Below are positions 13,055 through 63,739 of a stretch of DNA of 64,000 nt, one piece after another. Origin of the DNA: Malacoraja senta (Eukaryota); assembly GCA_038087875.1 (NCBI GenBank), contig CM075992.1, positions 4,094,001 through 4,158,000 on the forward strand. Reading direction: 5' to 3'. A program made the position numbers and the translations under genes. Position 1 is the first letter of the stretch, and every line of letters starts with the position of its first letter. The notes beneath the pieces were generated by a model. That model had not been told where the DNA came from. It did not search any database and saw nothing but the letters and a program-made list of their open reading frames with translations.

Positions 13055-13154
13055 ACAGGGTCTGAAGAAGAGTTTCAGCCCGAAACGTTGCCTATTTCCT
13101 TCGCTCCATAGATGCTGCTGCACCCGCTGAGTTTCTCCAGCACTTTTGTCTACC
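13055..13154 (+). mobile_element. 100-bp hammerhead-headed mini-element nested in an older pseudo-LTR copy
   Basis: 13-bp TSD TTCCTCAAACACT (13042-13054, 13155-13167). Confidence 0.82.
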
Positions 13155-13363
13155 TTCCTCAAACACTTTGTCTTTTGCTCAGGATTCCAGCATTTTCAGT
13201 TCCTCACATCTCCAACCTCTCAAGAACTATCCAGTACATTTCCTATGGAGTCACACATGGGTTAAAGTTGATTAAAATCATAAATATAAATAGCTTGGGG
13301 GCTTTGCTTTCCTCAGTCCAGCCATTAACATCTGAGCGTGATGCAGTGCAGCACTTTGCTCAC

Positions 13364-13608
13364 CTGCGTGTGGCTGCTTGGCGGGCTGGCTTGTTTCCAA
13401 ATGAAGCTTTTGCGGGCTGCAATTGCTCCACACCAACATCCCTGTTCGCTAAGTGGTCAGCGCTTGAGGAGGTAATGGGAGGAAGATGAGATCTAAGTCC
13501 GAAGACGATCTCCCCCCAGGAAGTGTTTGATGTGTGAACTGTGAAAACGCTGATCTCATTGACCACTGATTGTGCTTCAAGAGTTGGAAAGCTAATTTCA
13601 GCTGTTAC
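13364..13608 (-). CDS. Candidate internal exon of an unidentified host gene
   Basis: Non-repetitive; acceptor TTTTTTGTTGTTGGATGAAG|, donor CAG|GTGAG; open in one frame for 245 nt (VTAEISFPTLEAQ...QAATR), phase 0 to 2. Confidence 0.4.
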
Positions 13609-13681
13609 CTTCATCCAACAACAAAAAAGTTTTGCATAACTTTGATTGTTTTTTTTGTAAACTATCGCAAACGAGGAACTA

Positions 13682-14145
13682 ACGAAGAAAGACTGGATAG
13701 ACTCGGCTTGTACTCGCTAGAATTTAGAAGATTGAGGGGGGATCTTATAGAAACTTACAACAATTCTTAAGGGGTTGGACAGGCTAGATGCTGGAAGATT
13801 GTTCCCGATGTTGGGGAAGTCCAGAACTAGGGGTCACAGTTTAAGGATAAGAGGGAAGAGGGAAGTCTTTATGGACCGAGATGAGAAAATCATTTTTTAC
13901 ACGGAGAGTGGTGAATCTCTGGAACTCTCTGCCACAGAAGGTAGTTGAGGCCAGTTCATTGGCTAAATTTAAGAGGGAGTTAGATGTGGCCCTTGTGGCT
14001 AAAGGGATCAGGGGGTATGGAGAGAAGGCAGGGATGGGATACTGAGTTGGATGATCAGCCATGATCATATCGAATGGCGGTGCAGGCTCGAAGGGCCGAA
14101 TGGCCTACTCCTGCACTTATTTTCTATGTTTTTCTATGTTTCTAT
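13682..14145 (+). mobile_element. CR1-clade LINE 3' fragment
   Basis: EERLDRLGLYSLEFRRLRGDLIETY; TTTCTATG tail. Confidence 0.88.
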
Positions 14146-14179
14146 GAATACTGAGACTAATTGTGAAGGAACTGCAGAT

Positions 14180-14912
14180 GGAAACATAGAAACAGGTGTA
14201 GGAGGAGGCCATTTGGCCATTCATTGTGATCATGGCTGATCATCCACAATCAGTAACCCATGCCTGCCTTCTCCCCATATCCCTTGATTCCGCTAACCCC
14301 TAGAACTCTATCTGACTCTCTTTTAAATTCATCCAGTGAATTGGCCTCCACTGCCTTCTTTGGCAGAGAATACCACAGATTCACAACTCTCTGGATGAAA
14401 AACATTTTTTCTCATCTCAGTTTTAAATGGCCTCCCCTTTATTCATAGACTGTGGCCCCTGGTTCTGGACTCCCCCAACATTAGGAACATTTTTCCTGCA
14501 TCTAGCTTGTCCAGTCCCTTTATAATTTTATATGTTTCTATAAGATACCCTCTCATCCTTCTAAATTCGAGTAAATACAAGCCCAGTCTTTCCAATCTTT
14601 CCTCATATGACAGTCCCGCCATCTCGGGGATTAACCTCGTGAACCTGCCTCAATAGCAAGGATGCCCTGCCTCAAATTAGGAGACCAAAATTGTACGCAA
14701 TACTCCAGAAGTGGTCTCACTAGGGCCCCGTAGAATGGCAGAAGGACCTCTTTACTCCTTTACTCAAATCCTCTTGTTATGAAGGCCAACATGCCATTAG
14801 CTTTCTTCACTGCCTGCTGTACCTGAATGTTTACTTTCAGTGACTGGTGTACAAGGACGCCCAGGTCTTGTTGCACTTCCCTTTTTCCTAATCTGACACC
14901 ATTGAGATAATA
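14180..14912 (-). mobile_element. CR1-clade LINE 3' fragment
   Basis: Reverse complement of the same CR1 consensus; VQQAVKKANGMLAFI. Confidence 0.88.
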
Positions 14913-15467
14913 GGAGGTAGACAAAAAATGCTGGAGAAACTCAGTGAGACAGCATCTATGGAGAGAAGGAATCGATAATAATCTGCTCCTTTTGTTATAT
15001 GGAGAAGGCAGGAGAATGGGGTTTGATAGACCAGCCATGATTGAATGGCAGAGTAGACTTGATGGGCAGATGGCCCAATTCTGCTCCAATCACTTGTGAA
15101 CATGAATTTATGAGGTTGGTTTGTGTGATGGTCTGGGCTACGTCCACAATTCTCTGCAATTTCGTTGAGCCTGATAACCAGACAAACATTGTCAAACTCA
15201 GATAGATTCTGCTTGGCAAGGGTACAAACGGAGATGGCTTCAGGCAGGTTTATTGGAGTGAGATGCAGTTCAGCCAAGATCCAATTAAATGACACAAGCG
15301 AGCTTGGCTGCTCCTGTTCTCTGCTTCCACGTCTCACAAGCAGCCAAATGGCCCCCTTGGTTTAGTTATTTTAGAGATACAGCATTGAAACAGACCCTTC
15401 AGCCCATCGAGTCCCCACTGTCCAGCAATCACCCGTGCACAATCATTATCCTGCACACACTAGGGAC

Positions 15468-15842
15468 ATAGAAACATAGAAACATAGAAAATAGGTGCAG
15501 AAGGAGGCTATTCGGCCCTTCGAGTCAGCACCGCCATTCATTGTGATCATGGCTGATCGTCCACTATCAATAACCCATTCCTGCCTTCTCCCCATATCCC
15601 TTGACTCCACTAGCCCCTAGAGCTCTATCTAACTCTCTCTTAAACCCATCCAGTGATTTGGCCTCCACTGCCCTCTGTGGCAGGGAATTCCATAAATTCA
15701 CAACTCTCTGGGTGAAAAAGTTTTTTCTCACCTCAGTCTTAAATGACCTCCCCTTTATTCTAAGACTGTGGCCCCTGGTTCTGGACTCGCCCAACATTGG
15801 GAACATTTTTCCTGCATCTAGCTTGTCCAGTCCTTTTATAAT
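15468..15842 (-). mobile_element. CR1 3' fragment inserted in a SINE
   Basis: ORF 15567-15806; (CATAGAAA)n tail; SINE resumes near 15841. Confidence 0.88.
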
Positions 15843-16623
15843 TTACAATTTTCACCAAAGCCAATTAACCTACAAACCTGTACGTCTTTGATGTGTGGGA
15901 GGAAACCGGAGCACCTCAAGAAAACCCACGCAGTTCACGGGGAGAAGGTACAAACTCCGTACAGACAGCGCCCTTGGTCAGGATGGAACCCGGGTCTCTG
16001 GCGCTGTGAGGCAGCAACTCTACCGCTGCGCCACCGTGCCACCTGGTTCAGTAACGCAACAGCTAAACTTGTTCAACTTTAAATAAATGCTATTATTTAT
16101 ATTATATGTAATCTTTAACCCAAATCCCAACTGGACGCACATGACATATGATTCTGCTGCTTGTGGTACGTAGAATAGAGATCAGTACAGCGCAGGAACA
16201 GTCCCTTTGGCTGACAACGTCTGTGCTCAATATGATGCCAAGTTAAACTAATCTCCTCTGTCTGTATGTGATCCATATCCCTCCATTCCCTGCATATCCA
16301 TGTTCCTACCTAAAAGCCTCTTAAATGCAACTATCTGCTTAAAAGGAATCTTATCCCCATGTGAAATAACCATCAAGAATGAATCATTCATTCAATCCAA
16401 TGATGTAACTGCTAGTGAGGTTTGAGAAGTTAACTCTTCAGTGGATTCTCAAGACAAGGTGGTGCAGCGGTAGAGTTGCTGCCTTACAGCGCCAGAGACC
16501 CGGGTTCCATCCTGACTACGGGCGCAGTCTGTACGGAGTTTGTACATTTTCCCCTTGACCGTGTGGGTTTTCTCCAGGTGCTCTGGTTTCCTCCCACACT
16601 CCAAAGACGTACAGGTTTGCAGG

Positions 16624-17036
16624 TTAGAAGGATGAGGGGTTATCTTATAAAAACATATAAAATTATAAAAGGACTGGACAAGCTAGATGCAGGAAATTTT
16701 TCCCCAATGTGGGGCGAGTCCAGAACCAGGGGCCACAGTCTTAGAATAAATGGGAGGTCAGTTAAGACGGAGATGAGAAAAAACTTTTTCACCCAGAGAG
16801 TTGTGAATTCATGGAATTCCCTGCCACATAGGGCAGTGGAGGCCAAGTCACTGGATGGATTTAAGAGAGAGTTAGATAGAGCTCTAGGGGCTAGTGGAGT
16901 CAAGAGATATGGGGAGAAGGCAGGCACGGGTTATTGATAGGGGACGATCAGCCATGATCACAATGAATGGCGGTGCTGGCTTGAAGGGCCGAATGGCCTC
17001 CTCCTGCACCTATTTTCTATGTTTCTATGTTTCTAT
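16624..17036 (+). mobile_element. CR1 3' fragment inserted in a SINE
   Basis: RRMRGYLIKTYKI...; SINE halves at 16457-16623 and 17037-17182. Confidence 0.88.
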
Positions 17037-17332
17037 GTTAATTGGCTTCGGTAAAATTCTAAATTGTCCCTGGTGTGTGTAGGATGGTGCTAGTGTGCGG
17101 GGATCGCTGGTCAGTACGGACTCGGTGGGCTGAAGGGCCTGTTTCCGCGCTGTATCTCTAAACTAAACCAAACTAAACTAAAAAACCAAAAGCAATCTGA
17201 TTACTGAGAGAAGCATTTGATGGAGGAGACATTAATATAATACTAAGGCTCACTCACTCCAACTGGCCATCAACAGCAGACGCTATTAACAGGGAACTGA
17301 CTGATGCATTTGCCTGTCTGCCAAAGTCTCAC

Positions 17333-17406
17333 TTCAACCCCATGGGAAGGAAGCTTCTCTTCAGAAGGAAATTTCCATTCGGAAATCTCAGGAGTCTGCT
17401 TTTCAG
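17333..17406 (-). CDS. Candidate internal exon of an unidentified host gene
   Basis: Acceptor CTCTTGTCTTTTGTCTTAG|, donor GAA|GTGAGA; EKQTPEISEWKFPSEEKLPSHGVE, phase 1 to 0, in frame with 13364-13608. Confidence 0.4.
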
Positions 17407-18917
17407 CTAAGACAAAAGACAAGAGTTGAAACACTAAATGGTTTTAAGTTCCCACATTCCAGATCTGATTGATGCATTTCTAACGGCGGATGGGGTGTGG
17501 ATGCCGTTGGCTGTGCTACCACTGATCAGAAGGAATTCTCCTGGTGCTGTTCGAACATGGTGGCGCAGGGGTAGAGTTGCTGCCTCACACTGCCAGGGAC
17601 CCGGGTTCGATCCTGACTGTGGGTTCTGTCTGCATGGAGTTTGTACGCTCTCCCTGTGGCCTGCGCAAGGTTTCCCCTACACTCCAAAGACGTAGAAACA
17701 TAGAAACATTCAAATTAGGTGCAGGAGCAGGCCATTCTGTCCTTCAAGCCAGCACCGCCATTCAATATGATCATGGCCGATCATCCTAAATCAGTACCCC
17801 TTTACTGCTTTCTCCCCATATCCCTTGATTCCGTTAGCCCTAAAATGCTAGACCTTGGCCTCAGCAGTCAACTGTGTCGGTGGATATTGGACTTTCTCAG
17901 TGAACGCCCACAGACGGTGAGACTTGGACCCTACACCTCGACATCCCTGACCCTCAGCACAGGAGCACCGCAGGGCTGTGTGCTCAGTCCGCTCCTCTAC
18001 GCCCTATACACACATGACTGCGTGCCCCATCACCTCACAAATAGGATCATAAAATTTGCGGGCGATACAACCGTGGTGGGGCTCATCTCAAATGGGAACG
18101 AGGACGCCTATAGAGAGGAGGTGCACAGACTTTCTGAGTGGTGTGCTCACAACAATCTCTCTCTGAACACTAAAAAGACAAAGGAGATCATCACTGATTT
18201 CAGGCGACATAGAGCGGAGCTCAGGCCACTGGAGATAGGGGGCGAGGAGGTGGAGAGGGTGCCTAGTTTTAAATTTCTGGGGATCAACATCAGTGAGGAT
18301 CTTAAATGGTCTGTGAACTCTGCTGTAGTTGTAAAAAAGGCGCAACAGAGACTTTACTTCCTCAGAACACTGAGGAAGGCCCATCTGTCTGCTAAACTGC
18401 TGGAGTCTTTCTACCGCTGTTCAGTAGAAAGCATACTGACTTACTGCATAACTGCCTGGTTTGGGAACTGTTCAGCAGCTGACAGAGCAGCTCTCCAGAG
18501 GATGATAAAAACTGCCCAGGGTATCATTGGACTCCCCCTGCCCCCTCTGGAGGACATTTACCACTCCAGATGCCGCAGCAGGACCTGTAATATTGTGAAA
18601 GACATTACACATCCTTGTCACCACCTTTTCACACCGCTGCCCTCAGGAAAAAGGTACAGGTCGCTAAAGTCATGCACTGCCAGACTCAAGAACAGCTTTT
18701 ACCCATCAGCAATCTTGGGACTGAACTCTGTCTCGGGAGCGGGTTATGGGGAAGGAGGGGGGGTGGGAGACAATGTTAATTTATGTAAATGTGAATCCAT
18801 GGGTGGGTTTGGGGAGGGAGGGAGTGTAAAAGGTATGAGTATGTGAATGTTTGAAGTTCTTTTAAATGGAGAGACACAGTAATCTCGTTGTATGTGACAC
18901 ATGCAATGACAATAAAG

Positions 18918-19012
18918 TCTGAAGAAGGGTTTCGGCCCGAAACGTTACCTATTTCCTTCGCTCCATAGATGCTGCTGCACCCGCTGAGTTTCTCCAGCAT
19001 TTTTGTGTACCT
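18918..19012 (+). mobile_element. 95-bp hammerhead-headed Penelope-derived mini-element
   Basis: 12-bp TSD ATGACAATAAAG (18906-18917, 19013-19024). Confidence 0.88.
18919..18946 (+). ncRNA. Minimal type I hammerhead ribozyme motif (Penelope-associated, subfamily A)
   Basis: CUGAAGA-A-GGGU(UUCG)GCCC-GAAAC-GUU; core nucleotides intact; palindromic AACGUU in place of helix III. Confidence 0.7.
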
Positions 19013-21077: not shown

Positions 21078-22054
21078 CAACTCAGCGGGACAGGCAGCAT
21101 CTCTGGAGAGAAGGAATGGCTTATGTTTCAGGTCGAGACCCTTCTTCAGACTGGAGGCCATAATGTCATAAGGTCGGAGTAGAATTAGGCCATTCGGCCC
21201 ATCAAGTCAACTCCGCCATTCAATAATGGCTGATCTATCTCTCCCTCCTATCCCCATTCTCCTGCCTTCTCCCCATAACCTCTGACACCCGTACTAATCA
21301 AGAATCTATCCATCCCTGCCTTAAAAATATCCACTGAGTTGCCCTCCACAGATTCACCACCCTCTGACTAAAGAAAAGTCATGGGAAAGGGAAACGAGGG
21401 GTTTAGATGATGATGATACAGAGAGATATATAACAAATGAACGTAGCCAGTCTGGGTTAAAATATGGTCGCAGGAGGAATGACAGAGGGGGAGCAGCAAG
21501 ACAGGATGTTGTAGAGCTCTCATCGGAGAGAGGAGGAGAACTTCTTCATGGACATACCTTGAGGAGATATTTTAGTTTAGTTTAGAGATACAGAATGGAA
21601 ACAGGCCCTTCGGCCCACGAGTCCGCACCGACCAGTGATCATGCCTGTACACTATCTCTGAAGTCTAAAGTCTGCACAGGAACGGTTCCATTACAAACAA
21701 GTGTCATGTAACAGCTGTACTGTGGGTGAGTGTGGGAACTGTGGGAAGAACTGAGTTGTTATTCCACTTTGCGATGAACATGAGTAGCATTTCATTCTTC
21801 GGGGAATCAAACTTAGCTCCAGTGAAGCTTTCCTTCTGTGCAAGGCTAAACACATCTGCTTAACTTGTCTTCTTGGTGACAGGGACATGCTTCTGATGGG
21901 GAACAATTACACAATGCTGGGTCACACTGGCTAACCTTGTAAACAAGTGTACGTTGAAACAAGGAGCTGCAGATAGACAGAAAGTGCTGGAGTAACTCAG
22001 CGGTGAAAGTCAGCAGGACGACAGTGAAACTAGTAGCACTAGGGCAGTAACAAA

Positions 22055-23985: not shown

Positions 23986-24495
23986 AGGTAGATAGAAATG
24001 CTGGAGAAACTCAGCGGGTGAGGCAGCATCTATGGAGCGAAGGAAAAGGTGACATTTTGGGTCGAGACCCTTCTTCAGACTGATGTGGGGGTGGTGGGGG
24101 TGGGAAGAAGTAAGGAAGAGGTGGCGACAGTGGGCTGTGGGAGAGCTGGGAAGGGGAGGGGAAAGAGGGAGAAAGCAAGGACTACCTGAAATTGGGGAAG
24201 TCAATGTTCATACCGCTGGGGTGTAAACTACCCAAGCGAAATATGAGGTGCTGCTCCTCCAATTTGCAGTGGTCCTCACTCTGGCCATGGAGGAGGCCCA
24301 GGACAGAAAGGTCGGATTCGGAATGGGAGGGGGAGTTGAAGTGCTGAGCCACCGGGAGGTCAGGTTGGTTATGGCGAACACCGAGCGGAGGTGTTGGGCG
24401 AAGCGATCGCCAAGCCTACGCTTGGTCTCACCGATGTAGATCAGCTGACACCTAGAGCAGCGGATGCAATAGATGAGGTTGGAGGAGGTGCCGTG
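23986..24495 (-). mobile_element. Penelope-like element 3' fragment: GIY-YIG endonuclease plus pseudo-LTR with hammerhead motif
   Basis: Minus strand reads TSSNLIYCIRCSRCQLIYIGETKRRLGDRFAQHLRSV, then after a frameshift PVAQHFNSPSH...LEEQHLIFRLGSLHPSGMNIDF; followed by CTGAAGAAGGGTCTCGACCC; approximate TSD AGACTAGCTGT(T/A)GT at 23972 and 24505. Confidence 0.9.
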
Positions 24496-32508: not shown

Positions 32509-32700
32509 GAAATGGGCTGTCGAAAGGTCTTGAGCCACGAAATGGTCAGAAGAGTGACCCCTACTCAAGAAATGCTCTGAAGATAGTTTCGACCCAAGAA
32601 ATGATCTAAAGAAAGGTCTTGACCCAAGATATGGTCTGTGGAAAGTTCCTGACCCAAGATATGGTTTGCAGATAGGTCTTCACCCAAGAAATAGTCTGAA
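32509..32700 (+). repeat. Degenerate 30-bp tandem repeat resembling the hammerhead core (~6 units)
   Basis: GACCCAAGA-like anchors at 32532, 32562, 32591, 32621, 32651, 32681; consensus approximately GTCTGAAGAAAGGTCTTGACCCAAGAAATG. Confidence 0.78.
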
Positions 32701-40453: not shown

Positions 40454-40662
40454 TGTAGAGCCGTGCATGTTCCTTTAACATAATGACCTCACCACTACTA
40501 ACCACTCCCCATTATCTTCAGTATAATTGTAACCTTCCCACCCCTAGCTCGCTCTCTAGCTCTGGTAACGGACCACGAACAGCTAGGGCAATATGTGTGT
40601 ATACGACTACAATGTATGCAATAAACTAAGAGTGAAGACACTACGTGTTTGACGTCTTTACA
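40454..40662 (+). repeat. 5' LTR of Gypsy element (209 bp)
   Basis: Direct repeat of 44998-45208; I count 4 substitutions and one 2-bp indel; contains AATAAA. Confidence 0.96.
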
Positions 40663-40680
40663 TGGTGTCAGAAGTGGGAT
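40663..40680 (+). other. Primer binding site, tRNA-Leu type
   Basis: TGGTGTCAGAAGTGGGAT directly after the 5' LTR; complementary to the vertebrate tRNA-Leu(CAA) 3' end ATCCCACTTCTGACACCA (from recall). Confidence 0.85.
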
Positions 40681-40754
40681 CCTGCGTCTCCTGTCTATCG
40701 GGTTTGTTTTGTTTTCTCCAAGTTTTTATTTTCCTTTCAAACCCTTTATGTACT

Positions 40755-43700
40755 ATGGCCAGCTCGTGTCGTAAGCCTGACGTTCTGGTGTTTGACTCTG
40801 ACATCGTTCACCGGTGGACTGTCTTCCGGCGCGACTTCCAGCACTATGTCGCCATCGCTCATCCTAATGCTACCCCTGCGGTTACAGCACATCTGCTCCT
40901 CAACCTGGCTGGCCCGGAGGCCATGGAACGTTTTGAATCTTTCGAGTACGCCGATGGTGAGCATGCAGAGGACCCGATATGTCTCACGAATAAATTTGCC
41001 GCGCTGTGTGACATTCCCACCAATTGCATTATAGAGCGGTTCAAGTTTTTCAGCAGGCGCCAGAAACCCGGGGAGCACATCGACACCTTCGTTGCATCGT
41101 TGCGTCACCTGGCTCGGCGTTCCCGCCTGGACACGTTGACCCCCGACCAAATGGTCAGAGATGTCCTAGTTCACGGTCTACAGGACGTGAAGCTACGGGC
41201 AGAGCTTCTGAGAAAGCCGGACCTCACTTTAAACGAAGCTTTGCATGCCTCTCGCATGGCTGCTGCTGTCGACTCCGTATCTCCCCCTGAGGCTCAGGAC
41301 ATTCACTATGCTGGTACTGCTGAACGCCCGTGGCGCGATGGCCCGCCACGCCAGCGTAGCACTCCCGCGCCCGCGAGGGCTAACCCTCGTCGATGCCCAA
41401 ACTGCAACTTTGTCAGTCATCAATTTAATGTTTGCCCTGCGCTGGGTAAGACTTGTAATTTCTGTAAGAAGCTTAATCACTTCTCCGCAGTGTGCCGTTC
41501 CAGGGGCCAGCCTGTCCCTGCTCCGAGAAGGAGTCTACACAACCTGACTGCTACTGATAGTGTTTATGGCTCCGAATACCTTTCAGACGAACTCCCTGAT
41601 TCTGATAACAGCTCCACCCATGATGAATCGTTTGTTTTTTCAGTCTTGGGTGCACATGCTTTGATAGCTGATCCATCAGTTCGAGTTACTGTGAATGGAA
41701 AGACCTTTTCTGCCAAGGTCGACACGGGGGCGTTTGCAAATGTTATGTCGTTAAGCCTCTTTCAGCAGATAAGATCTGGTGAGAATATTACTGCTGACGA
41801 CTCCCGCCTCCACGCATATGGGGGGAGCGTGCTATTTCCGGTCGGCAAGGCAACCCTTATCTGCACAGTTCTGAATGCCTCTCGGCCCCTCTCTTTCCTC
41901 CTGCTGGAATCTGAGAATGTTACTCTGTTGGGCGCCAGTGCATGCCAGGACCTCGGTTTGGTTTCCTTCCACTGCGATATCCACCTGATGCAGACCCCCA
42001 TGGATCCCATGTGCGAATACCCCAACCGTTTTGACGATGTATTGGGCAAACTACCCTGCAAGTACGAAATCGAGGTGGACCCGGAGGTCCATCCGGTAGT
42101 CCGCCCGGCTCACCGCGTCTCCTTTGCTATGAAGGACAGGGTGGAGTCGACTCTGCGCCAGATGGTGGCTGTGGGCATCATCAAGGAGGTGAGTGATCCC
42201 ACCCGGTGGGTCTCCACCATGGTCGTTGCTTCCAAGAAGGACAAGAGTGAGATTTGGATCTGCATAAACCCCAAGGACCTAAACCTTGCCATCAAGCGCC
42301 CGCACTACCCCATGCGAACGGTGGAGGATGTCGCTGCAAAGGTTGGCCAAGCCACTGTATTCTCTGTCCTCGATGCCAAGAGCTCTTTCTGGCAGATTCC
42401 GCTGGATGAACGTTCATCCTTCCTGACCACGTTTGGTACACCTTTCGGCAGGTTCCGTTTCCTCCGCATGCCTTTCGGGATCAATTCTGCCAGCGAGGTT
42501 TTCCAGCGCACCATGGAGCAGATGTTTACCGGTCTGCTGTGTGCTATCATCGTCGATGACATCTTTGTGTACGGGAGAGACGTCGCTGAGCACGACCTCC
42601 ACCTCCGCCAAGTCCTGGATCGGGCTCGTGAGATCAACCTCAAACTGAACCCCAAGAAGTGCCGCTTCCGCGTCCCGGAGGTCACCTACGTGGGCCACGT
42701 TTTTACGGCTGGGGGTCTAAAACCAGACCCACAGAAGACAGCTGCGGTCTCTGGGATGCCAGCTCCGGTCAACGTGCCCAGCCTGCAGCGCTTCTTGGGC
42801 ATGGTGAACTACCTGGGGAAATTCATTCCCGACCTCAGCGAGCTGAGCGCGCCCCTGAGGGAACTGACCAAGATGGACACTGCCTGGGTTTGGTACCCGC
42901 TGCATCAGGCAGCCTTCGATGACTTAAAATCCCGGCTGGTTCGCACCCCCACTCTGAAGTTCTTCGACTTAAAGCGCCCCACCGTCCTTACCTGCGATGC
43001 CTCAAGTTTCGGTCTCGGTGCTGCCTGCCTGCAACTCTACGACCGCCTGCAACTACCTGTCTCCTACTCCTCCCGCACTATGACCCCTGCCGAACAACGC
43101 TACGCTCAGATCGAGAAGGAGCTCCTTGCCGTGGTGTTTGCCTGCTCGAAGTTCAGGGACTACATTCTGGGTAACACTTTCACTATCGAAACCGACCACC
43201 AGCCGCTGGTCACGATCTTGAACAAACCGATCCACGTTGCCTCTTCCCGTTTGCAGCGTATGATGCTGCAGCTCCAACGCTTCACGTTTCAAATCGTGTA
43301 CCGCAAGGGCAAGGACATGTTTGTGGCCGACACGCTGTCCCGCGCACCGCTGGCTTCTACTGCCCGCCACCCGTACGAATCATCCGACCTGATGGTGCTA
43401 AACGTTAACTTTATGCCTTCCCAGCAGATGCAGTCCCTGATTCACCACACTGCCAATGATCCTGCCCTGCAACAGCTTATAGACGTCATCCGTCGTGGCT
43501 GGCCTGACCGTCGCTCATCCTTGCCGGCTGGTGCTGCGCCCTACTTCCTAGTCCGGGATGAACTTGTGCTGCATGCCGGCGTGGTGGTGAAGGGCCACAA
43601 GGTTGTGGTGCCTGCTGCACTGCGGGACCACTATTTCCAAACTGCCCACAGCGGCCATCCCGGAGCCGATGCCACCCTGTCCCAGGCCCAGAGCCAATTT

Positions 43701-44870
43701 TATTGGCCCGGCATGGCACAGGACATCCGGGATAGGGTCTCCGCCTGCTCAACCTGCAATACCCTCTCTCCCCACCAGCAACGCCAGCCACTCCTGCAAC
43801 AGCCTGCCCCCGCCCTGGCGTGGATGGCGGTCGCTACGGACATATTTGAGTGGCGTGGCAAACATTTCCTGGTCCTTGTCGACTCCTACTCCAGCTGGTT
43901 CGAGATTGAGCGTCTGCGCTCCCTCACTTATGCTGCTGTCATCGGGAAGCTGAAACGCCACTTTGGGACCTTTGGCATTCCTGTGACTGTGCAGTCTGAC
44001 AACGGGGGCCAGTTCACGAGTGCTGAGTTCCGCGCCTTCGCTGCCGCCTATAACTTTCGCCACATCACCAGCAGCCCTGAATACCCGCAGAGCAACGGCC
44101 TTGCTGAGCGCGCCGTCCGCAGTGCCAAGGAGCTGTTGGAGCAGTGCAGACTGTCGCATTCGGATTTTTATCTGGCTCTACTGAATCTCCGAAATATTTG
44201 TCGCGACCATGCCATGGGCTCGCCCGCTCAGCGGCTCATGTCCCGCACCACTCGCCCTCCTATCCCTGTCTCCCAGCGATCCCTACAGCCCGCAGTCCGC
44301 AGCCCTGCTGCTGTCCAGGAGCGCATTACCCAGAAACAGGTCGTCCAGAAGCGCTCCCACAACAAATCATGCCGTCCCCTTCAGCCCCTCTTCAAGGGCC
44401 AGGTCGTCCGGATGCAGTCCCCCTCCGGACACCACCGACTGGCTGTTGTCATCGACTTTGCAGACTCTCCGCGCTCTTACCTAGTTGACTACGAGGGCAC
44501 CATCTACCGCCGGTCCCGCCAGCATTTGCTGCCGGTCAACGAGCCCGCTCCGCCTCCCGCAGCCCCTTTTGCTCCCCCGGTTGCCACCTCGTTGCCTACC
44601 GCTCCTCCCATGCCCAGGACTCTGCCCTCGCGACCCTTGGTGCCCCGTTCTCCCGCTGCTCCTCCTGGCCCCCCCCCATCAAACCTCTCCCACTCGCGTG
44701 CCCGTTGCGGTGCCCGTTTCTCCTCCCCGGTCTCCTCGTCCTCCCTCTCCTGCTCATTCTCCTCTCGGATCCCCTATTGCCCCTCCTGCTCCTGTACCTG
44801 CTCTTCCTTCGGAGGGGGGGGGGGAAGGCGGGCTGCGTACCCGCTCCGGGCATCTGGTCAAGCCGCCTGA
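40755..44870 (+). CDS. Gag-Pol polyprotein (two CCHC knuckles, aspartic protease, RT, RNase H, integrase)
   Basis: Likely start MASSCRKPD at 40755. Motifs: CPNCNFVSHQFNVC and CNFCKKLNHFSAVC; protease VDTGA; RT LDAKSSFWQ...MPFG...IVDD; RNase H CDAS...EKELLA...TDH; integrase H..HPG...CSTC, TD, SDN, SNGLAER. The native C-terminus is probably in another frame ending at 44892. Confidence 0.93.
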   Translation: MASSCRKPDVLVFDSDIVHRWTVFRRDFQHYVAIAHPNATPAVTAHLLLNLAGPEAMERFESFEYADGEHAEDPICLTNKFAALCDIPTNCIIERFKFFSRRQKPGEHIDTFVASLRHLARRSRLDTLTPDQMVRDVLVHGLQDVKLRAELLRKPDLTLNEALHASRMAAAVDSVSPPEAQDIHYAGTAERPWRDGPPRQRSTPAPARANPRRCPNCNFVSHQFNVCPALGKTCNFCKKLNHFSAVCRSRGQPVPAPRRSLHNLTATDSVYGSEYLSDELPDSDNSSTHDESFVFSVLGAHALIADPSVRVTVNGKTFSAKVDTGAFANVMSLSLFQQIRSGENITADDSRLHAYGGSVLFPVGKATLICTVLNASRPLSFLLLESENVTLLGASACQDLGLVSFHCDIHLMQTPMDPMCEYPNRFDDVLGKLPCKYEIEVDPEVHPVVRPAHRVSFAMKDRVESTLRQMVAVGIIKEVSDPTRWVSTMVVASKKDKSEIWICINPKDLNLAIKRPHYPMRTVEDVAAKVGQATVFSVLDAKSSFWQIPLDERSSFLTTFGTPFGRFRFLRMPFGINSASEVFQRTMEQMFTGLLCAIIVDDIFVYGRDVAEHDLHLRQVLDRAREINLKLNPKKCRFRVPEVTYVGHVFTAGGLKPDPQKTAAVSGMPAPVNVPSLQRFLGMVNYLGKFIPDLSELSAPLRELTKMDTAWVWYPLHQAAFDDLKSRLVRTPTLKFFDLKRPTVLTCDASSFGLGAACLQLYDRLQLPVSYSSRTMTPAEQRYAQIEKELLAVVFACSKFRDYILGNTFTIETDHQPLVTILNKPIHVASSRLQRMMLQLQRFTFQIVYRKGKDMFVADTLSRAPLASTARHPYESSDLMVLNVNFMPSQQMQSLIHHTANDPALQQLIDVIRRGWPDRRSSLPAGAAPYFLVRDELVLHAGVVVKGHKVVVPAALRDHYFQTAHSGHPGADATLSQAQSQFYWPGMAQDIRDRVSACSTCNTLSPHQQRQPLLQQPAPALAWMAVATDIFEWRGKHFLVLVDSYSSWFEIERLRSLTYAAVIGKLKRHFGTFGIPVTVQSDNGGQFTSAEFRAFAAAYNFRHITSSPEYPQSNGLAERAVRSAKELLEQCRLSHSDFYLALLNLRNICRDHAMGSPAQRLMSRTTRPPIPVSQRSLQPAVRSPAAVQERITQKQVVQKRSHNKSCRPLQPLFKGQVVRMQSPSGHHRLAVVIDFADSPRSYLVDYEGTIYRRSRQHLLPVNEPAPPPAAPFAPPVATSLPTAPPMPRTLPSRPLVPRSPAAPPGPPPSNLSHSRARCGARFSSPVSSSSLSCSFSSRIPYCPSCSCTCSSFGGGGGRRAAYPLRASGQAA

Positions 44871-47214: not shown

Positions 47215-47805
47215 CACAAAATGCCAGAGTAACTCAGCGGGACAGGTAGCATCCCTCGAGAATATGGATAGGTGATGTTTCACAGAGTGCTGGAGTTACT
47301 CAGCGGGTCAGGCAGCATCTGTGGTGAACATGGATAGGTGACGTTTCACAGAGTGCTGGAGTAACTCAGCGGGTCAGGCAGCATCTGTGGAGCGAAGGAA
47401 ATAGGCAACCTTTCGGGCTGAAACCCTGAAGGAAATAGGCAACGTTTCGGGCCGAAACCCGGAAGGGTTTCGGGCCGAAACGTTGCCTATTTCCTTCGCT
47501 CCATAGATGCTGCCGGAACATGGATAGGTGACGTTTCACAGAGTGCTGGAGTAACTCAGCGGGTCAGGCAGCATCTGTGGAGAACATGGATAGGTGACGT
47601 TTCACAGTGTGCTGGAGTAACTCAGCAGGTCAGGCAGCATCTCTGGATGAACATGGATAGGTGACGTTTCACAGAGTGCTGGAGTAACTCAGCGGGTCAG
47701 GCAGCATCTGTGGAGAACATGGATAGGTGACGTTTCACAGAGTGCTGGAGTAACTCAGCGGGTCAGGCAGCATCTGTGGAGAACATGGATAGGTGATGTT
47801 TCGGG
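47215..47805 (-). repeat. 66-bp minisatellite derived from the Penelope pseudo-LTR (~7 units)
   Basis: Unit CACAGAGTGCTGGAGTAACTCAGCGGGTCAGGCAGCATCTGTGGAGAACATGGATAGGTGACGTTT at about 47215, 47281, 47347 (partial), 47537, 47603, 47670, 47736. Confidence 0.9.
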
Positions 47806-54456: not shown

Positions 54457-54597
54457 TCACACGCACGCACACACACATGCGCACACTCACACGCACACAC
54501 GCACGCAAACTCACACGCACACACATTCGCACGTGCACACACGCACGCACACACACACGCACACACACACGCACACACACACGCACACACGCACGTG

Positions 54598-54629
<32 letters not shown>

Positions 54630-56520: not shown

Positions 56521-56742
56521 GTTAAAGAAGGAACTGCAGATGCTGGAAAATCGAAGGTACACAAAAATGCTGGAGAAACTCAGCGGGTGCAGCAGCATCT
56601 ATGGAGCGAAGGAAATAGGCAACGTTTCGGGCCGAAACCCTTCTTCAGACTGAAGAAGGGTTTCGGCCCGAAACGTTGCCTATTTCCTTCGCTCCATAGA
56701 TGCTGCTGCACCCGCTGAGTTTCTCCAGCATTTTTGTGTACG
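56521..56742. mobile_element. Inverted Penelope pseudo-LTR mini-insertion inside a CR1 fragment
   Basis: 11-bp TSD GGGAACATGTT (56510-56520, 56743-56753); palindrome 56557-56741. Confidence 0.88.
56621..56677. ncRNA. Two divergent hammerhead motifs (56621-56648 minus, 56650-56677 plus)
   Basis: Centre of a perfect palindrome: ...CTTCTTCAG-A-CTGAAGAAG... Confidence 0.68.
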
Positions 56743-57261
56743 GGGAACATGTTTCCTGCCTCTAGCGTGTCCAAACCCTTAACAATCTTATATGTTTCAA
56801 TAAGATATCCTCTCATCCTTCTAAACTCCAGAGTGTACAAGCCCAGCTGCTCCATTCTCCCAGCATATGACAGTCCCGCCATCCTGGGGATTAACCTTGT
56901 AAACCTACGCTGCACCCCCTCAATAGGAACATCGATCTCTGCGTATTAACGCTCTCCTACACACACAATAGGGCCAATTTACACTTATACCAGCCAATCA
57001 ATCAATACACCTTAAATTTAGTTTAGTGTAGATTGGTTTTGAAATACAGCGTGGAAACCTGAGAGGCAACGTCTTCACTAGGGTCAAGGAAAGAGCGTTC
57101 ACATCGCGGCCCTGTTTCCACCACCAGGCACAAGAAGCGCAAGAAGCGACAAGACAGACATCATTGTGTGCAGACGCCGAGAAGTGTGTTCAGCTCCTTC
57201 TGGACAACTTCTAATCTTGTGTGTGGGACTCGATAAGAAGAAGAACAAGAAGAAGAAGAAC

Positions 57262-57519
57262 CTCATATTCCGCTTGGGGAGTCTGCATCCTGGTGGCATG
57301 AACATTGAATTCTCACAATTCTGTTAGCCCCTGCTGTCTCCTCCCCTTCCCAGCTCTCCCTCAGCCACTCGGGCTCCTCCTCCTCCTTTTCCCTTTCTTC
57401 TCCCGTCCCACCCCCCATCAGTCTGAAGAAGGGTTTCGGCCCGAAACGTTGCCTATTTCCTTCGCTCCATAGACGCTGCTGCACCCGCTGAGTTTCTCCA
57501 GCATTTTTTTGTGTACCAT
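57262..57519 (+). mobile_element. Penelope-like 3' fragment (end of GIY-YIG domain plus pseudo-LTR)
   Basis: LIFRLGSLHPGGMNIEFSQFC* followed by the hammerhead motif at 57423; TSD GAAGAAGAACCTC at 57252-57264 and 57520-57532. Confidence 0.88.
57423..57450 (+). ncRNA. Minimal hammerhead ribozyme motif (subfamily A)
   Basis: CTGAAGAAGGGTTTCGGCCCGAAACGTT, on the same strand as the upstream GIY-YIG ORF remnant. Confidence 0.7.
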
Positions 57520-57832
57520 GAAGAAGAACCTCTTCACTCGGGTACATGGATAGCAAAGGTTTAGAGGGATATGGGCCAAACGCAGTCACCTGGGACTAGC
57601 TCAGCGGTAGAGTTGTCCAGACAGCACCCGTAGTCAGGATCGAACCCCGGTCTCCGACGCTGCAAGCGCTGTAAGGCAGCAACTCTACCGCTGAATTGAA
57701 CTGAGTGAAGTCAAGTCAAGTCAAGTCATATTTATTTATATAGCACATTTAAAAAACAACTCTCGTTGGCCAAAGTGCTTTACATTTGTTATAAGAATAG
57801 CATAAACAAACAAACTACATACATATATACAT

Positions 57833-57940
57833 CTATTTTGTAGAGTCTGAAGAAGGGTTTCGGCCCGAAACGTTACCTATTTCCTTCGCTCCATAGATGC
57901 TGCTGCACCCGCTGAGTTTCTCCAGCATTTTTGTGTACCT
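57833..57940 (+). mobile_element. Hammerhead-headed mini-element inside an L2-like tail
   Basis: 13-bp TSD TACATATATACAT (57820-57832, 57941-57953). Confidence 0.82.
57847..57874 (+). ncRNA. Minimal hammerhead ribozyme motif (subfamily A)
   Basis: Identical 28-nt motif inside a TSD-flanked mini-insertion. Confidence 0.7.
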
Positions 57941-58823
57941 TACATATATACATGTAGCCCTCACTCAGAGGACGTCAGGAAAGGCTTGGGAGTGTAGATA
58001 AGTTTTTAGTCTTGACTTAAAGGAGTCGATGGAGGGGGCAGTTCTGATGGGAAGGGGGATGCTGTTCCACAGTCTAGGCTAAGGCGTGGTCGCCCCTGAG
58101 CTTATGCCTAGACCGTGGGATATTCAGCAACCCCAAGATATTTCATTCCTGCCTTGGGCTGGGGAAGAGAGTCGGTGCACTGAGGATGGGATTGAGTGAG
58201 GGGGACCGCCAAGGCAGAAATGAAGGAAAAGGCGATTCTTGTAACACAGTCGTAATGGAGGAGAAGATATTAAGAGTCTGGGCAAGGATGAGAAGACTCC
58301 GAGACATCACTCATGGGATCTATATCCAATTAAAATGTCCTTTCCTTCAGATTTATTCTTTATTGGAATCTGTAGCAGAGAGACCCATGTCATGAAATAT
58401 TCATGCAAGTGTATTAGGACGTTGGAAGGGATCATTTTCTGCAGCAGCGCTCGCGACTACCACAGCCTTAACTAAACGTCACAGTTCATTTGCGGGAAGA
58501 GAAACTGAGTTAACATTTCGGGTCGATGACCTTTCATCAGGGCTGGGGAAAGCTAGAAATCAAACACGTCTCAGGTTGCAGAGAGAGAGAGAGAGAGAGA
58601 AAGAAGCGGTGGAGAGAGAAATGAGGTGGATGTGAAGATGTGGGCCAGGGAAGGTTAGAAATAGAAACGTAGAAAACTAGGTGCTGGAGTAGGCCATTAA
58701 TTCGGCCCTTTGAGCCAGCATCGCCATTCAATATGATCATGACTGATCATCTAAAATCAGTACCCCGTTCCTGCTTTTTCCCCATATTCCCCTTTATTCC
58801 GTTAGGTATATGGCGATATCTAA

Positions 58824-58945
58824 GGTCGACAAAAATGCTGGAGAAACTCAGCGGGTGAGGCAGCATCAATGGAGCGAATAGGTGACGTTTCGGGTCGAGA
58901 CCCTTCTTCAGACCGTTTCGGGTCGAGACCCTTCTTCAGAGGAGG
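58824..58945 (-). mobile_element. Mini-element with duplicated hammerhead
   Basis: 15-bp TSD TATGGC(G/T)ATATCTAA (58809-58823, 58946-58960). Confidence 0.8.
58884..58939 (-). ncRNA. Tandem dimer of hammerhead motif (subfamily B)
   Basis: Minus strand: CUGAAGAAGGGUCUCGACCCGAAACG-GU-CUGAAGAAGGGUCUCGACCCGAAACGUC. Confidence 0.68.
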
Positions 58946-61028
58946 TATGGCTATATCTAATGTTGAATGGCACAAAGGGTGGTGGTGCCTATGAGGAGGT
59001 TTTCGTGTAGAGATACAGCACAGAAAGAGGCCCTTAGGCCCACCAAGTCCCCCCTACACTAACACTATCCTACACACGAGGGACAATTTGCTATCTTTAC
59101 TGAAGCCAGAAACCTGTACCTCTTTGGGACATGGGAGGAAACTGGTGCACCTGGAGAATACCCACGCTGTCACAGGGAGAACGTGCAAACTCCACACCAA
59201 CAGCACCCGTAGTTAGGATCGAACCCGGGTCTCTGGCTGTGTAAGAGCTGTAAGGCAGCAACTCTACTGCTGCGCCACCCTGCCGCCCGGTAATTAAAGG
59301 TGTTATAGAGTCATCCAGCACGGAAACAGGCCCTTCAGCCCAAATTATCCATGCCGACCAAGATACCACATCTACGCGAGTCCCACCTGCCTGCATTTTG
59401 TCCATATCCCTCTAAACCTTTCCGATCCATACACCTGTCTCAATTTTTTTTTAATGGTCTTATAGTTCATAAAGTTATGACAGGAGCAGAATTAGGCCAT
59501 TTGGCCCACCATTTGATCATGGCTTTTTCCCTCTCAACCCCATTCTCCTGCCTTCTCCCTGTAACATTAAGAACCTAAAAACCCAGGTTGGACCTGGCGA
59601 CGGGTGCTGTCTGTGTGGTCAAGGACAAAGGATATTTATTGTCACATACACCAATTGGTGCAGTGAAATTTGAGTGACCGCGTGGGTTTCCTCCGGGTGT
59701 TCCGTTCTCCTCCCACATCCCAAAAGACGTGCGGGTTTGCAGCTTAATTGGTTTCTGTAAATGTCTCCCAGTGTGTAGGGAGTGGATGAGGAAGTGAGAT
59801 CATGTAGAACGTGATCGATGCACGGCATGTACCTGATGGGCTGAACGGCCTGTTTCCATGCTGTATCTTTAATCTAAGCTTAAACTGAACTAAACTACCC
59901 TGGGATGAAAGATGCTTACTATCTTTTCTATTCTCCTCATAACTTTACAAACTTCTCCAAGGTCATCTCTCAGCCTCCCAGCTTCCAGTGGAGATAAATC
60001 CAGCCTATCTAATCTCCTCTCATAACTGCAGCCCTCCATTTCTCATTTCCATGGCAGTCGAGAAATTGGAATTCAGTTTGTGAAATTAAATAAGTTAGCA
60101 TCAGTCACTTGTGACCACGAAACCACTGGATTGCAATGTCCACACGCCCCCTTGCACACTGATGGCCCTTAGAGATGTCCATCTGTCATCCCTCCCTGCT
60201 CCAGCATTAGGCCCAGTCTTAACTGCCCTTTAATACAACTGAGATACACTCTCAGTTTAAGGGCAAATAGAAATGGCCGATGGAAGGAATACCCAAAACA
60301 CCTTTTCGATCAATAAATAGGAACACAGAGGCTGGTGAATCTGTGGAATTCTTTGCCACAGAGGCCAAGTCAATGGATATTATTAAGGCAGAGATGGATA
60401 GATTCTTGATTAGTACGGGTGTCAGAGGTTATGGGGAGAAGGCAGGACAATGGGGTTAGGAGGGGGAGTTAGATCAGCCATGATTGAATGGTGGAGTGGA
60501 CTTGATGGGCCGAATGGCCTAATTCTGCTCCTGTCCAAATGTTTAATGCTTGTGAGGAAGGAGTTAATCAATGCATTCTGGTGTTGATTTCTTCTCATTG
60601 CTTTAGTTTAATGCATGGTAAGCATGGAAGTGTAGGTCGATTTCGTTTCAGTGACCGACTGGGCAAAGACAAGGCCTAAAGGAACCGTTCGTTCAGCCAT
60701 TTCAGTAAACCTAATTAAAAGCCAGGCTCCCCACTAATTCACCACTGCAGGGAAAGCCGACGGCAATCACCAATCTTATTTACAAGCAGGGTATTGATAC
60801 AGAGAGGCACAGGTTTTCTGACATCAAACCAGTGATTGATTGATTGAAAGATACTGTGTGGAAATAGGCCCACTGAGTCCACGCCAACCATCGATCACCC
60901 ATTCACACTAGTTCTATGTTTGGAAGGAACCGCGGATAGACACTGGTTTACACCGAAGATAGACGCAAATTGCTGGAGCAACTCAGCGGGACAGGCAGCA
61001 TCTCTGGAGAGAAGGAATGGGTGATGTA

Positions 61029-61610
61029 TCTGGTCGAGAATCTCAAGTTTGTCAAGGAGGACTCTCTCTAACTTCTACAGGTGCACAGTAGAGAGCATGC
61101 TGACCGGTTGCATCGTGGCTTGGTTCGGCAACTTGTGCGCCCTGGAGAGGAAAAGACTACAAAAAGTAGTAAACACTGCCCAGTCCATCATCGGCTCTGA
61201 CCTCCCTTCCATCGAGGGGATCTATCGCAGTCGCTGCCTCAAAAAGGCTGGCAGCATCATCAAGGACCCACACCATCCTGGCCACACACTCATCTCCCCG
61301 CTACCTTCAGGTAGAAGGTACAGGAGCCTGACGACTGCAACGACCAGGTTCAGGAATAGCTACTTCCCCACAGCCATCAGGCTATTAAACCTGGCTCGGA
61401 CATAACACTGAACTTTAATAACCCATTATCTGTTATTTGCACTTTATCAGTTTATTTATTCATGTGTGTATATATTTATATAATGGTATATGGACACACT
61501 GATCTGTTCTGTAGTCAATGCCTACTATGTTCTGTTGTGCTGAAGCAAAGCAAGAATTTCATTGTCCTATCAGGGACACATGACAATAAACTCACTTGAC
61601 CTTGACTTGA
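61029..61610 (+). mobile_element. Rex/Babar LINE 3' fragment
   Basis: FYRCTVESMLTGCIVAWFG...LPSGRRYRS...NSYFPTAIRLLN; (CTTGA)n tail. Confidence 0.88.
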
Positions 61611-62582
61611 GGTTCTAAGTTGTTCTAGTTTCACATGCACTCCCTGCAAACTAGGAGCGATTTACAGAGGGCCATTTAAGCCACACACCCGCACATATTT
61701 GGGATGTGGGAGGAAACGGGAGCACCCGGAGAGAACCCACGCGGTCCCGGGGGAGAACGTACAAACTCCGCGCAGACAGCACCCAAAGTCAGGATCGAAC
61801 CCTCGTTTGGACAAACCTCTTAATTGTTTACTGTCTATTGTTTAGACAATAAGCTAAACTGAAAGTGAAGCCAGTTTGTGAGCTGAGAGCTCCAGAACTC
61901 CACCTCCATGCCACTGTGGACATTCCTTTAGGAAGGAGATGAGGATAAATTTCTTTAGTCAGAGGGTGGTGAATCTGTTGAATTCTTTGCTACAAAAGGC
62001 TGTGGAGGCCAAGTCAGTGGATATTTTGAAGGCAGAGATAGATGATTAGTACGGGTGTCAGAAGTTATGGGGAGAAGGCAGGAGAATGGGGTTAGGAGGG
62101 AGAGATAGATCAGCCATGTTTGAATGGTGGAGTAGACCTGATGGGCCGAATGGCCTAATTCTTCTCCTATCACATGAAGTGTGCCACTCGAATTGGTGAT
62201 AACCTATCCAAAACATGGAGAAAGCTCAAGAAGCTGAACGATTACTCGCGATCACCCAACCTAGGAGGAGGAGGAAGACTGGACATTTTGGTGCCTTCCC
62301 TCGCAGTGCAGAGTGTAGATTCTACTGTGGGCGGATGTTCGTGTTGAATTTCTTATAGTGTGTTGTGTCATTTTTTTCTATCTCTTTTTATTATTTGTAT
62401 GGATAGTCTTCCCTGTAAAGCACTTTGGCTTTTGATTGAAATCGACTGAAAAGTGCTATATTAAAAAAAAAATTAAAAAAAATTAAAAGACCTTCCCTCC
62501 ATCACGACGAGACAATGAGAAGCTCAGAATGAAGGAAGCGTACTACACATTGTGGCCTTGTTTAAAAAATAGTTCCCCCTGA

Positions 62583-63130
62583 ACATAGAGTCATTGTCAT
62601 AGAGTGATACAGCAAGGAACAGGCCCCTCGGCCCAACGTGCCCACACTAGCCAACAATGTGGCAGCTACACTAGTCCCACCTGCCTGCGTTTGGTCCATA
62701 TCCCTCCAAACCTGCCCTATCCATGTACCTGTCTAACTGTTTCTTAAACATTGGGATAGTCCCAGCCTCAACTACCTCCTCCGGCAGCTCGTTCCATACA
62801 CCCACCACCCTTTGTGTGAAAAAGTTACCCCTCAGATTCCTATTAAATCTTTTCCCCTTCACCTTAAACCTCTGTCCTCTGGTCCTCGATTCCCCTGCTC
62901 TGGGCAAGAGACTCTGTGCATCTACCCGATCTATTCCTCTCATGATTTTGTACACCTCTATAAGATCACCCCTCACCCTCCTGCGCTCCAAGGAATAGAG
63001 ACCCAGCCTACTCAACCTCTCCCTATAGCTCACACCCTCTAGTCCTGGCAACATCATCGTAAATATTCTCTGTACCCTTTCCAGCTTGGCAACATCTTTC
63101 CGAGAATATGATGCCCAGAACTGAACACAA
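62583..63130 (-). mobile_element. CR1-clade LINE 3' fragment (subfamily sharing its tail with the SINEs)
   Basis: ORF 62671-63057 LGLYSLERRRVRGDLIEVYKIM...FFTQRVVGVWNELP. Confidence 0.9.
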
Positions 63131-63617
63131 CACAGCGATCAAAGCTGAACAAATTAAGTTGAATAACTATCAGAATAAAAAAAGATTAAATTAAAATGTG
63201 CAATATAGACTTAGAGAAGGGAGTCAATAAAAAAAAAGAAAGATATTTTATTGATCAGTATAAAGAAGTCAATATTTTGAGACCAGATGGAAATGCTCCC
63301 AGTTCAATTATTAGACATTCAATCACATCGGAATGAAATTCTAAACAACCGACATGAGGAAAGCTTATTACAACATAAAAAGCCTGCTATTGATGATAGT
63401 GTCGTGTTATATCAATGGACCTGGCAGAAGGAATGTGGTTGAGTGAATAATCACTAAGACCATGGTTGTCTGTCTCTGTAGCCTCACATCTAGAGTAATA
63501 CAGTGTGGAAACAGGCCCTTCAGCCCAACTTGCCCACGCCAACCAACATGTCCCATCTACGCTAGACCCACCTGCCTGCGTTTGGTCCATATCCCTCTAA
63601 AACCATGCTATCCATGT

Positions 63618-63739
63618 GTTAAAGAAGGAACTGCAGATGCTGGAAAATCGAAGGTACACAAAAATGCTGGAGAAACTCAGCGGGTGCAGCAGCATCTATG
63701 GAGCGAAGGAAATAGGTAACGTTTCGGGCCGAAACCCTT
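63618..63739 (-). mobile_element. Mini-element truncated inside the hammerhead, inserted in a CR1 fragment
   Basis: 10-bp TSD CTATCCATGT (63608-63617, 63740-63749). Confidence 0.82.

Follow-up and report, generated by a model that had tools for sequence, protein, structure and literature searches.

The closest described relatives of the sequences considered here are the endonuclease-positive (EN+) Penelope-like elements (PLEs) of the Neptune and Nematis type, which in the available parts of PMC8557442 and PMC3846280 have a single frame for reverse transcriptase (RT) with a GIY-YIG endonuclease (EN) at its C-terminus, a characteristic linker and CCHH-type residues, partial-tandem and inverted insertions, an optional tail of 30-40 nt, and target-site duplications (TSDs) of variable length. 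We examined five short insertions in a 64,000-nt stretch of Malacoraja senta DNA (GenBank assembly GCA_038087875.1, contig CM075992.1, positions 4,094,001 to 4,158,000 of the forward strand; hereafter the window, whose own numbering is used below), which an earlier note had proposed as a possible non-autonomous retroelement family headed by a hammerhead ribozyme. Comparison with copies sampled from the 1.94-Gb genome, where copies were counted by sequence-pattern matching, shows by sequence that all five are the 3′-terminal part, comprising hammerhead and tail, of a young Neptune/Nematis-type PLE with a unit of about 3.9-4.0 kb; we are confident that the copies are PLE termini and not a separate family. 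The element is like its described relatives in all the above traits, its optional tail being 34 nt, but differs in one: 5′ truncation as described there is frequent and without a fixed point, whereas more than half of the copies here start within 18 nt.

Element positions take as +1 the C that opens the hammerhead core, CUGAAGA; 0, -1, and -2 are the bases preceding it. The motif fits the minimal type I hammerhead of metazoan PLEs (PMC4209133, available text) in its CUGANGA/GAAA/NUH core, the extra base before helix II, the G10.1-C11.1 pair, and the palindromic 15.2-16.2 positions; that text describes most motifs as dispersed and "probably related to truncated PLEs", proposes circles, and contains no breakpoint analysis, whereas here the cut site proves to be a minor 5′ end. 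Non-LTR retrozymes (LTR, long terminal repeat) are derived from PLE pseudo-LTRs and defined, in the available part of bioRxiv 10.64898/2026.07.22.740005, as units in tandem, every one of which contains a complete hammerhead; arrays of 138-384 bp elsewhere in this genome resemble them, a few consisting of such units, but the five window copies are monomers with TSDs of their own and not cut-to-cut units. The green anole Poseidon element PAc, as far as PMC11167929 presents it, is like ours in having two 3′ ends about 34 nt apart 3′ of the hammerhead and copies with an uncut hammerhead, but its open reading frame (ORF) starts inside the hammerhead, whereas our first ATG lies at +164. The element thus belongs to a known class, and dispersed hammerheads from truncated PLEs as well as pseudo-LTR-derived arrays have already been published (PMC4209133; bioRxiv 10.64898/2026.07.22.740005; both in part). 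A literature search, with most subscription papers outside its reach, found no description of a pile-up of 5′ ends at the hammerhead or of the jump junctions reported below.

Five termini in the window

All five insertions are present where the earlier note had placed them, each with its own TSD as claimed. They are listed here with one example of the predicted hammerhead and two longer copies of the same terminus.

13060..13154, + strand: short PLE terminus, -1 to about +93, older subfamily A haplotype, 13-bp TSD
13055-13059: 5-nt filler of the preceding copy; the host is older pseudo-LTR-like sequence
18916..19012, + strand: short PLE terminus, -2 to +94, matching the long-copy terminus exactly; 12-bp TSD, its last two bases overlapping -2/-1
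18919..18948, + strand: predicted minimal type I hammerhead (CUGAAGA, one unpaired A, 4-bp helix II, GAAA, palindromic ACGU, 2-bp helix I)
57844..57940, + strand: short PLE terminus, -2 to +94, 13-bp TSD, preceded by an 11-nt filler (57833-57843) ending in G
58824..58945, - strand: short terminus, older subfamily B; hammerhead core doubled as a 28-bp repeat that restarts at -1; TSD matching at 14/15 bp
63618..63741, - strand: short terminus with the 34-nt tail, +5 to +128, 10-bp TSD
57133..57517, + strand: longer copy of the terminus, with 3′ untranslated region (UTR) and decayed endonuclease-domain sequence upstream
23986..24491, - strand: longer copy of an older subfamily, with endonuclease-domain C-terminus, 3′ UTR, hammerhead, and terminus

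The description of the insertions as nothing more than a hammerhead and some 65-100 nt downstream suits these five, but the same terminus also ends long RT/GIY-YIG copies, two of them in the window (last two lines). Similarly, 5′ breakpoints upstream of the core were rightly claimed as regards the cluster at -4 to +13 and the lack of a peak at the cut site, but the copy at 63618 starts within the core. The 3′ ends do cluster, at about +91 to +96 and +124 to +133. About 40 stretches of the window resemble the PLE terminus. The copy at 18918 sits immediately 3′ of an RT frame (17719-18846) with RVT_1 and ALKBH8_N matches, which we take to belong to a Rex/Babar element.

Exact TSDs of at least 10 bp, mostly 12-14 bp, flank 62/126 short non-inverted copies, a set deliberately enriched for starts at -3 to 0, and none of 623 swapped-flank controls. 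They have 38% G+C and no fixed sequence, and in 30/62 at most one base lies between TSD and element. Where no TSD was found nearby, an 11-mer recurred further upstream in 16/64 short copies, six of which are jump tandems, while two rows are an older long copy.

The predicted hammerhead cut falls after +28, the cut-site triplet being GUU in subfamily A and GUC in subfamily B. Across sixteen window copies 90% of helix cells are paired; helix changes are one-sided only (U-A/U-G), and covariation does not exceed that of shuffles (254/500 for cells paired). An Rfam search returned no hammerhead family match at E up to 1, and folding of a 201-nt region gave z = -2.2, with a predicted fold other than the hammerhead.

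The parent element and its short copies

The 28-base hammerhead core has 19,101 exact matches in the genome and a 27-base stretch near the element 3′ end has 24,978, against none for either reversed control. Host arrays inflate such counts: at locus L065 (G000:C1 3.87-4.04 Mb; L numbers are our locus labels) a single short copy and its TSD have been multiplied by a host tandem repeat of 2.0-2.5 kb. Thirteen of the first 30 core loci extend upstream through a common 3′ UTR to an open frame in which RT and GIY-YIG motifs occur, and a protein search of the genome found many copies with open frames of 1,200-1,302 codons, a range that reflects the variable number of Pro/Ser/Thr-rich tandem repeats in the N-terminal half (residues about 170-480; L131-L150). 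Twenty long copies were fetched; in most the unit measures 3,918-3,996 bp from hammerhead to hammerhead, with frames of 1,224-1,250 codons that open at +128, and most have a partial copy upstream. A direct repeat of at least 10 bp surrounds the whole long insertion in 10/14 checked.

The parent frame contains the motifs DKG, YIDD, and YIG in that order, with matches to RVT_1 (E 7.5e-06) and GIY-YIG (E 7.2e-04) that both fall short of the Pfam curated cut-off. A C-x4-C-x2-C linker at residue 1117 of 1250 fits the CX2-5CxxC found between RT and EN in Neptune and Nematis, and a C-x2-C-x2-C ahead of YIG is followed by AEH and QHF histidines, consistent with the CCHH motif, two of whose cysteines lie within the GIY-YIG core, that marks EN+ PLEs (PMC8557442, in part). 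A partial-tandem pseudo-LTR, the 34-nt optional tail, inverted copies, and TSDs complete the EN+ traits of the parent. Internally deleted copies also occur (L302, L304, L305, L274, L328), one of them a 2,145-bp tandem. Mobilization by a Penelope RT/GIY-YIG, one of the earlier suggestions, is borne out; the same terminus is carried by long copies with an open RT and GIY-YIG frame.

Short and long copies share their commonest sequences letter for letter. Among 265 sampled copies (170 short and 95 long, with the youngest subfamily overrepresented in the long set), the two commonest 93-base haplotypes occur unchanged in both classes (31 short/39 long and 21 short/5 long), and all haplotypes with more than 7 short copies include long members; three small C+82/C+89 haplotypes (7, 5, and 5 copies) have no long member in the sample. 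After correction for a diverged older UTR, C+89 is present in 26/170 short versus 4/95 long copies, and G+29 is likewise commoner in short copies; because the long set is skewed to the youngest subfamily, we do not regard the C+89 difference as evidence for a private lineage. The initial appearance of C+89 as a short-only variant (23 versus 0) was an artefact of the diverged upstream UTR, and the variant is found in long copies too. No 14-mer is common to the 5′ flanks of 104 short copies, except for one host repeat; nor was a master lineage like that of a short interspersed element (SINE), with private variants or its own head, encountered in the 265 copies, in which no tRNA-head search was made. 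With the commonest haplotypes shared, 5′ ends ragged, and a shared leader lacking, a discrete SINE- or retrozyme-like family, as the earlier note had proposed, is not supported by these comparisons.

A pile-up of 5′ ends

The first 100 matches of a 3′ anchor (G000:C1, first 6.3 Mb) yielded 82 loci and, less 3 repeats of one tandem array, 79 copies: 47 simple copies and 32 with an inverted partner. Starts at -4 to +13 account for 26/47 simple copies; of the others none start at -5 to -14, 2 at -15/-16, 16 at -79 to -2032, and 3 at +20 to +31. Since the decay of longer copies predicts about 1 start per 18 nt where 26 were observed (P about 6e-28), the breakpoints form a sharp peak, and the smooth decay that the earlier note had named as the mark of ordinary 5′ truncation does not appear. 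Copies with an inverted partner behave alike, 18/32 starting at -5 to +11; partners are often joined in palindromic parts of the hammerhead (-4 to +4, +11). Further upstream, 5′ ends recur at about -318 and -198 (L138, L146, L253, L307, L247; L244, L264, L271, L302), and may mark minor start sites or microhomology hot-spots.

Genome-wide, homology among the 19,101 perfect cores stops at -3 in 1,060, at -2 in 1,980, at -1 in 3,066, and at 0 in 1,415. Samples of 30 loci at these positions held 1, 4, 0, and 3 long copies with a point change (8/120), which leaves about 7,080 corrected stops, or 37% of cores in four positions; 7,909 cores reach -7, and 26/30 sampled from these extend past -20. The stop position is alike for copies ending at +93 and at +128. 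At the predicted cut there are 322 starts at +29 (arrays included) and 229 at +30, to be set against 3,066 at -1 only roughly as the patterns differ; with +29 starts not clearly above +30 and far fewer than at -1, a cleavage-product model was rejected. Subfamily B offers 9 perfect cores, 4 or 5 without upstream UTR, which is too few to test. Assembled contigs from four presumed-RNA runs of related organisms have loose ends at -2, +94, and +129, showing only that similar copies exist in relatives.

Copies that arrive from the ORF pass the same site. None of 15 near-full-length loci stop at the upstream hammerhead, and 3/17 ORF-junction loci do (one internally deleted locus and one duplicate omitted), so that 3/32 ORF-traversing copies stop there, compared with 44/66 at the terminal hammerhead (P 7e-8); 5′ ends in the upstream repeat are scattered from -27 to beyond -2400. 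A fixed road-block, or plain RT stop at the ribozyme as the earlier note had it, is therefore unlikely, 29/32 ORF-arriving copies having read through.

Jump junctions, tandems, and arrays

An ORF-start pattern has 413 genome matches, and the loci of the first 100 contain 25 junctions at which a segment ending at or beyond +166 gives way, no more than 60 nt later, to a restart close to the hammerhead: 11 at -3/-2, 2 at +28/+29 (P 0.016), 2 at +5/+8, and 10 at -34 to -177. In the 11 a truncated 3′ end is joined to TCAGT, through A-rich linkers (up to about ten A) in 6/11 and with a G ahead of the restart in 7/11. Single TSDs enclose the whole partial tandem in six (L303, L320, L321, L330, L336, L349). 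The outer 5′ ends of the -3/-2 products lie at -4 to +7 in 9/9 that reach +13, a tenth ending at +48; this second-pass stop, 9/9, differs from the 3/32 of ORF-traversing copies (P 6e-7). Three further products restart at -38 (L326), -87 (L348), and -94 (L318), and in each the second pass ends at the same point, as expected if the jump departs from whatever RNA 5′ end exists. The simplest reading of the junctions would be that complementary DNA (cDNA) arrives at the physical 5′ end of an RNA and then jumps to the 3′ end of that RNA. The template switch entertained in the earlier note is partly upheld, since jumps do depart from the hammerhead site.

Two loci (L351 and L338, G000:C1 27.817 Mb and 381.271 Mb) are arrays of 138 bp (11 matches) and 165 bp (4 matches) whose units start at +29/+28 and lack the core; the arrays open in the middle of a unit and stop at the tail or close to it, and may be products of rolling-circle copying, later DNA amplification being the alternative. 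Four others (L319, L322, L335, L352) are arrays without the ORF (254, 275, 260, and 384 bp) in which each unit keeps a complete hammerhead; they are retrozyme-like derivatives of the PLE family.

An extra G often precedes the start. In TSD-anchored fillers at -3/-2 the final base is G in 10/13, and one-base fillers overall comprise 4 G and 3 A. In the first 100 genome matches for each stop, the preceding base is G in 35 at -3, 38 at -2, and 47 at -1, a significant excess at all three over local flank composition; short core duplications account for part of the excess at -1.

A proposed route

We favor, with some reserve, the view that each short copy is a dead end, an insertion of the final 95-130 PLE bases that arises when RT primes inside the RNA and runs off the RNA 5′ end. 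This view rests on i) the identity of short copies with the terminus of long ones; ii) the TSDs of the short copies; iii) two 3′ ends 34 nt apart; iv) a sharp 5′ edge at about -4; and v) partial tandems with -3/-2 fused to an RNA-like 3′ end. The -3/-2 site reads TCAGT after a pyrimidine tract, which has the form of the initiator consensus, and is likely to be the RNA start. An initiator-like TCACT lies in a rotifer pseudo-LTR (PMC3846280, in part), and the promoter and start site of Penelope are internal to the pseudo-LTR (PMC2377424, in part). RNA polymerase II would start at TCAGT, placing the hammerhead at the extreme 5′ end of a capped RNA; the target would be nicked and RT would prime internally at +93 or +128, nicking and priming being taken from the literature on other PLEs. 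PAc offers a precedent, its RT starting internally at two sites that agree with the genomic tail, the optional 30-40 nt tail lying between them (PMC11167929, in part). After 95-130 nt the cDNA would meet the RNA 5′ end; the run-off cDNA could then be joined to the target, giving a short copy, or could jump to that RNA's own 3′ end and extend beyond the priming site, duplicating the 5′ segment and regenerating the pseudo-LTR. On a full-length RNA that reads into a downstream repeat, terminal redundancy would make the jump seamless and repeatable, or the template might be a circle closed at the hammerhead cut; either would account for how rarely long copies stop at -3. The PAc model, by comparison, uses a multi-copy mRNA, and the main text of PMC11167929 does not describe a 5′ run-off or jump.

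An unlikely alternative to the run-off is a template boundary: RT, tethered to an RNA binding site in the manner of telomerase, would on its first pass copy up to the hammerhead's 5′ edge and then be released or jump, with no need of an RNA end. The edge does coincide with the 2-bp helix I (-1, 0), the modal stop is -1, copies ending at +93 and at +128 share this position, and the stop takes most first-pass copies but few of those that arrive from the ORF. But the second pass of the short jump products stops there in 9/9, and the products that restart at -38, -87, and -94 end at their restart points on both passes. RNA structure, moreover, normally halts RT on its 3′ side, yet the copies hold the whole motif.

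Less likely still, RT might copy a processed RNA, the polypyrimidine tract and CAG at -3 to -1 being a 3′ splice site or the end being cut by another nuclease. The sequence is acceptor-like, a donor-like AAG/GTATG at +162 overlaps the first ATG, and a D. virilis intron ends at helix I (PMC4209133, in part). None of 119 simple short copies, however, carries pre-GT element sequence joined at position 0, on which count splicing was rejected as their source; no +161-to-0 junction occurs in the fetched DNA, the would-be intronic CAG is retained at jump junctions, and in nearly half of the copies with a TSD, element and TSD are no more than one base apart. Splicing of a tandem transcript from the +162 donor-like to the -3 to -1 acceptor-like site would, we observe, excise the entire ORF.

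We consider it improbable, a little more so than RNA processing, that the copies are a self-propagating non-autonomous family, SINE-like or a monomeric retrozyme, whose short RNA is mobilized in trans. High copy number, fixed size, the greater frequency of C+89 and G+29 in short copies, and the true ORF-deleted tandem arrays elsewhere in the genome would suit such a family, but the shared top haplotypes, the long members of every haplotype well represented among short copies, and the lack of a shared leader or trailer argue against it, and the copies end at priming sites and so would be without the downstream sequence that a related RT needs (by analogy with PMC11167929, in part). Random 5′ truncation or pseudo-LTR recombination, with a peak produced by alignment artefacts or by the near-palindrome at -4 to +4, is very improbable, for although the palindrome explains some head-to-head junctions (32/79 sampled copies have an inverted partner) and diverged upstream UTRs led to the 8/120 misclassed long copies noted above, the peak persists in non-inverted copies and recombination would give scattered 5′ ends such as those of the upstream repeats.

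Several points weigh against the run-off route. The RNA 5′ end is a deduction from genomic DNA. In D. virilis the layout differs, with a start site about 120 nt upstream and an intron ending at helix I (PMC2377424 and PMC4209133, both in part). The modal stop in simple counts is -1, whereas an initiator would give -2; starts scatter as far as +13; and 10/25 junctions restart further upstream. The passage of long copies through -3 demands an additional assumption, and the long set is small (32) and partly picked for intact frames. Relative to all fetched DNA, the G excess is not significant at -3 (P 0.32) or -2 (P 0.09) and is significant at -1 (P 0.002); starts at +2 and +3 are also preceded by G, and the extra G may be an untemplated C addition rather than a copied cap.

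We also advance, tentatively and at somewhat short of an even chance, a broader proposal: that PLEs regenerate their pseudo-LTR by a strong-stop-like route, in which target-primed internal priming near the capped RNA 5′ end leads to run-off and then to a jump onto the 3′ end of that RNA. Short copies, some ten thousand of them, would then be failed jumps, the tandems with an oligo-A-G start would be jumps on prematurely ended RNAs, and the +29-joined arrays would record hammerhead cleavage in vivo. Such a route would resemble the minus-strand strong-stop DNA and first strand transfer of LTR elements in that priming occurs close to the 5′ end, the product runs off and is transferred to the 3′ end, and a terminal repeat is regenerated; it would differ in that the primer is nicked target DNA and not a tRNA, no integrase is involved, the run-off product itself integrates, and the transfer is often without homology. 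A young family of this kind provides thousands of near-identical insertion records with the parents intact, and leads to base-level predictions: the RNA should start at -3/-2, be primed at +93/+128, and be cut at +28, with the jump leading to its 3′ end. We wish to stress that the value of the case lies in a testable route to pseudo-LTR regeneration, an open question, and not in a new element family.

Other features of the window

Four further termini, all related to the same PLE, are:

11722..11818, - strand: short terminus, -2 to +94, preceded by G; outside the set with an exact TSD of at least 10 bp
56521..56741, no strand assigned: two termini head to head, reaching +128 and about +92, that meet at the near-palindrome TCAG-N-CTGA, with a direct repeat of about 10 bp on the flanks
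4576..4707, - strand: short terminus of an older subfamily, start about -3
21079..21152, - strand: older-subfamily terminus, start about -3, its 3′ side interrupted or cut

Positions 47227-47802 are an array of 66/133-bp units from the PLE terminus (region +19 to +82) into which a younger doubled core has inserted, and 32509-32700 is a decayed 30-bp tandem of 6.4 copies resembling the hammerhead core alone. A 1,405-codon open frame at 40653-44870 on the + strand, with RT, RNase H, integrase zinc finger, and integrase core, is an apparently young LTR retrotransposon with the Gypsy domain order.

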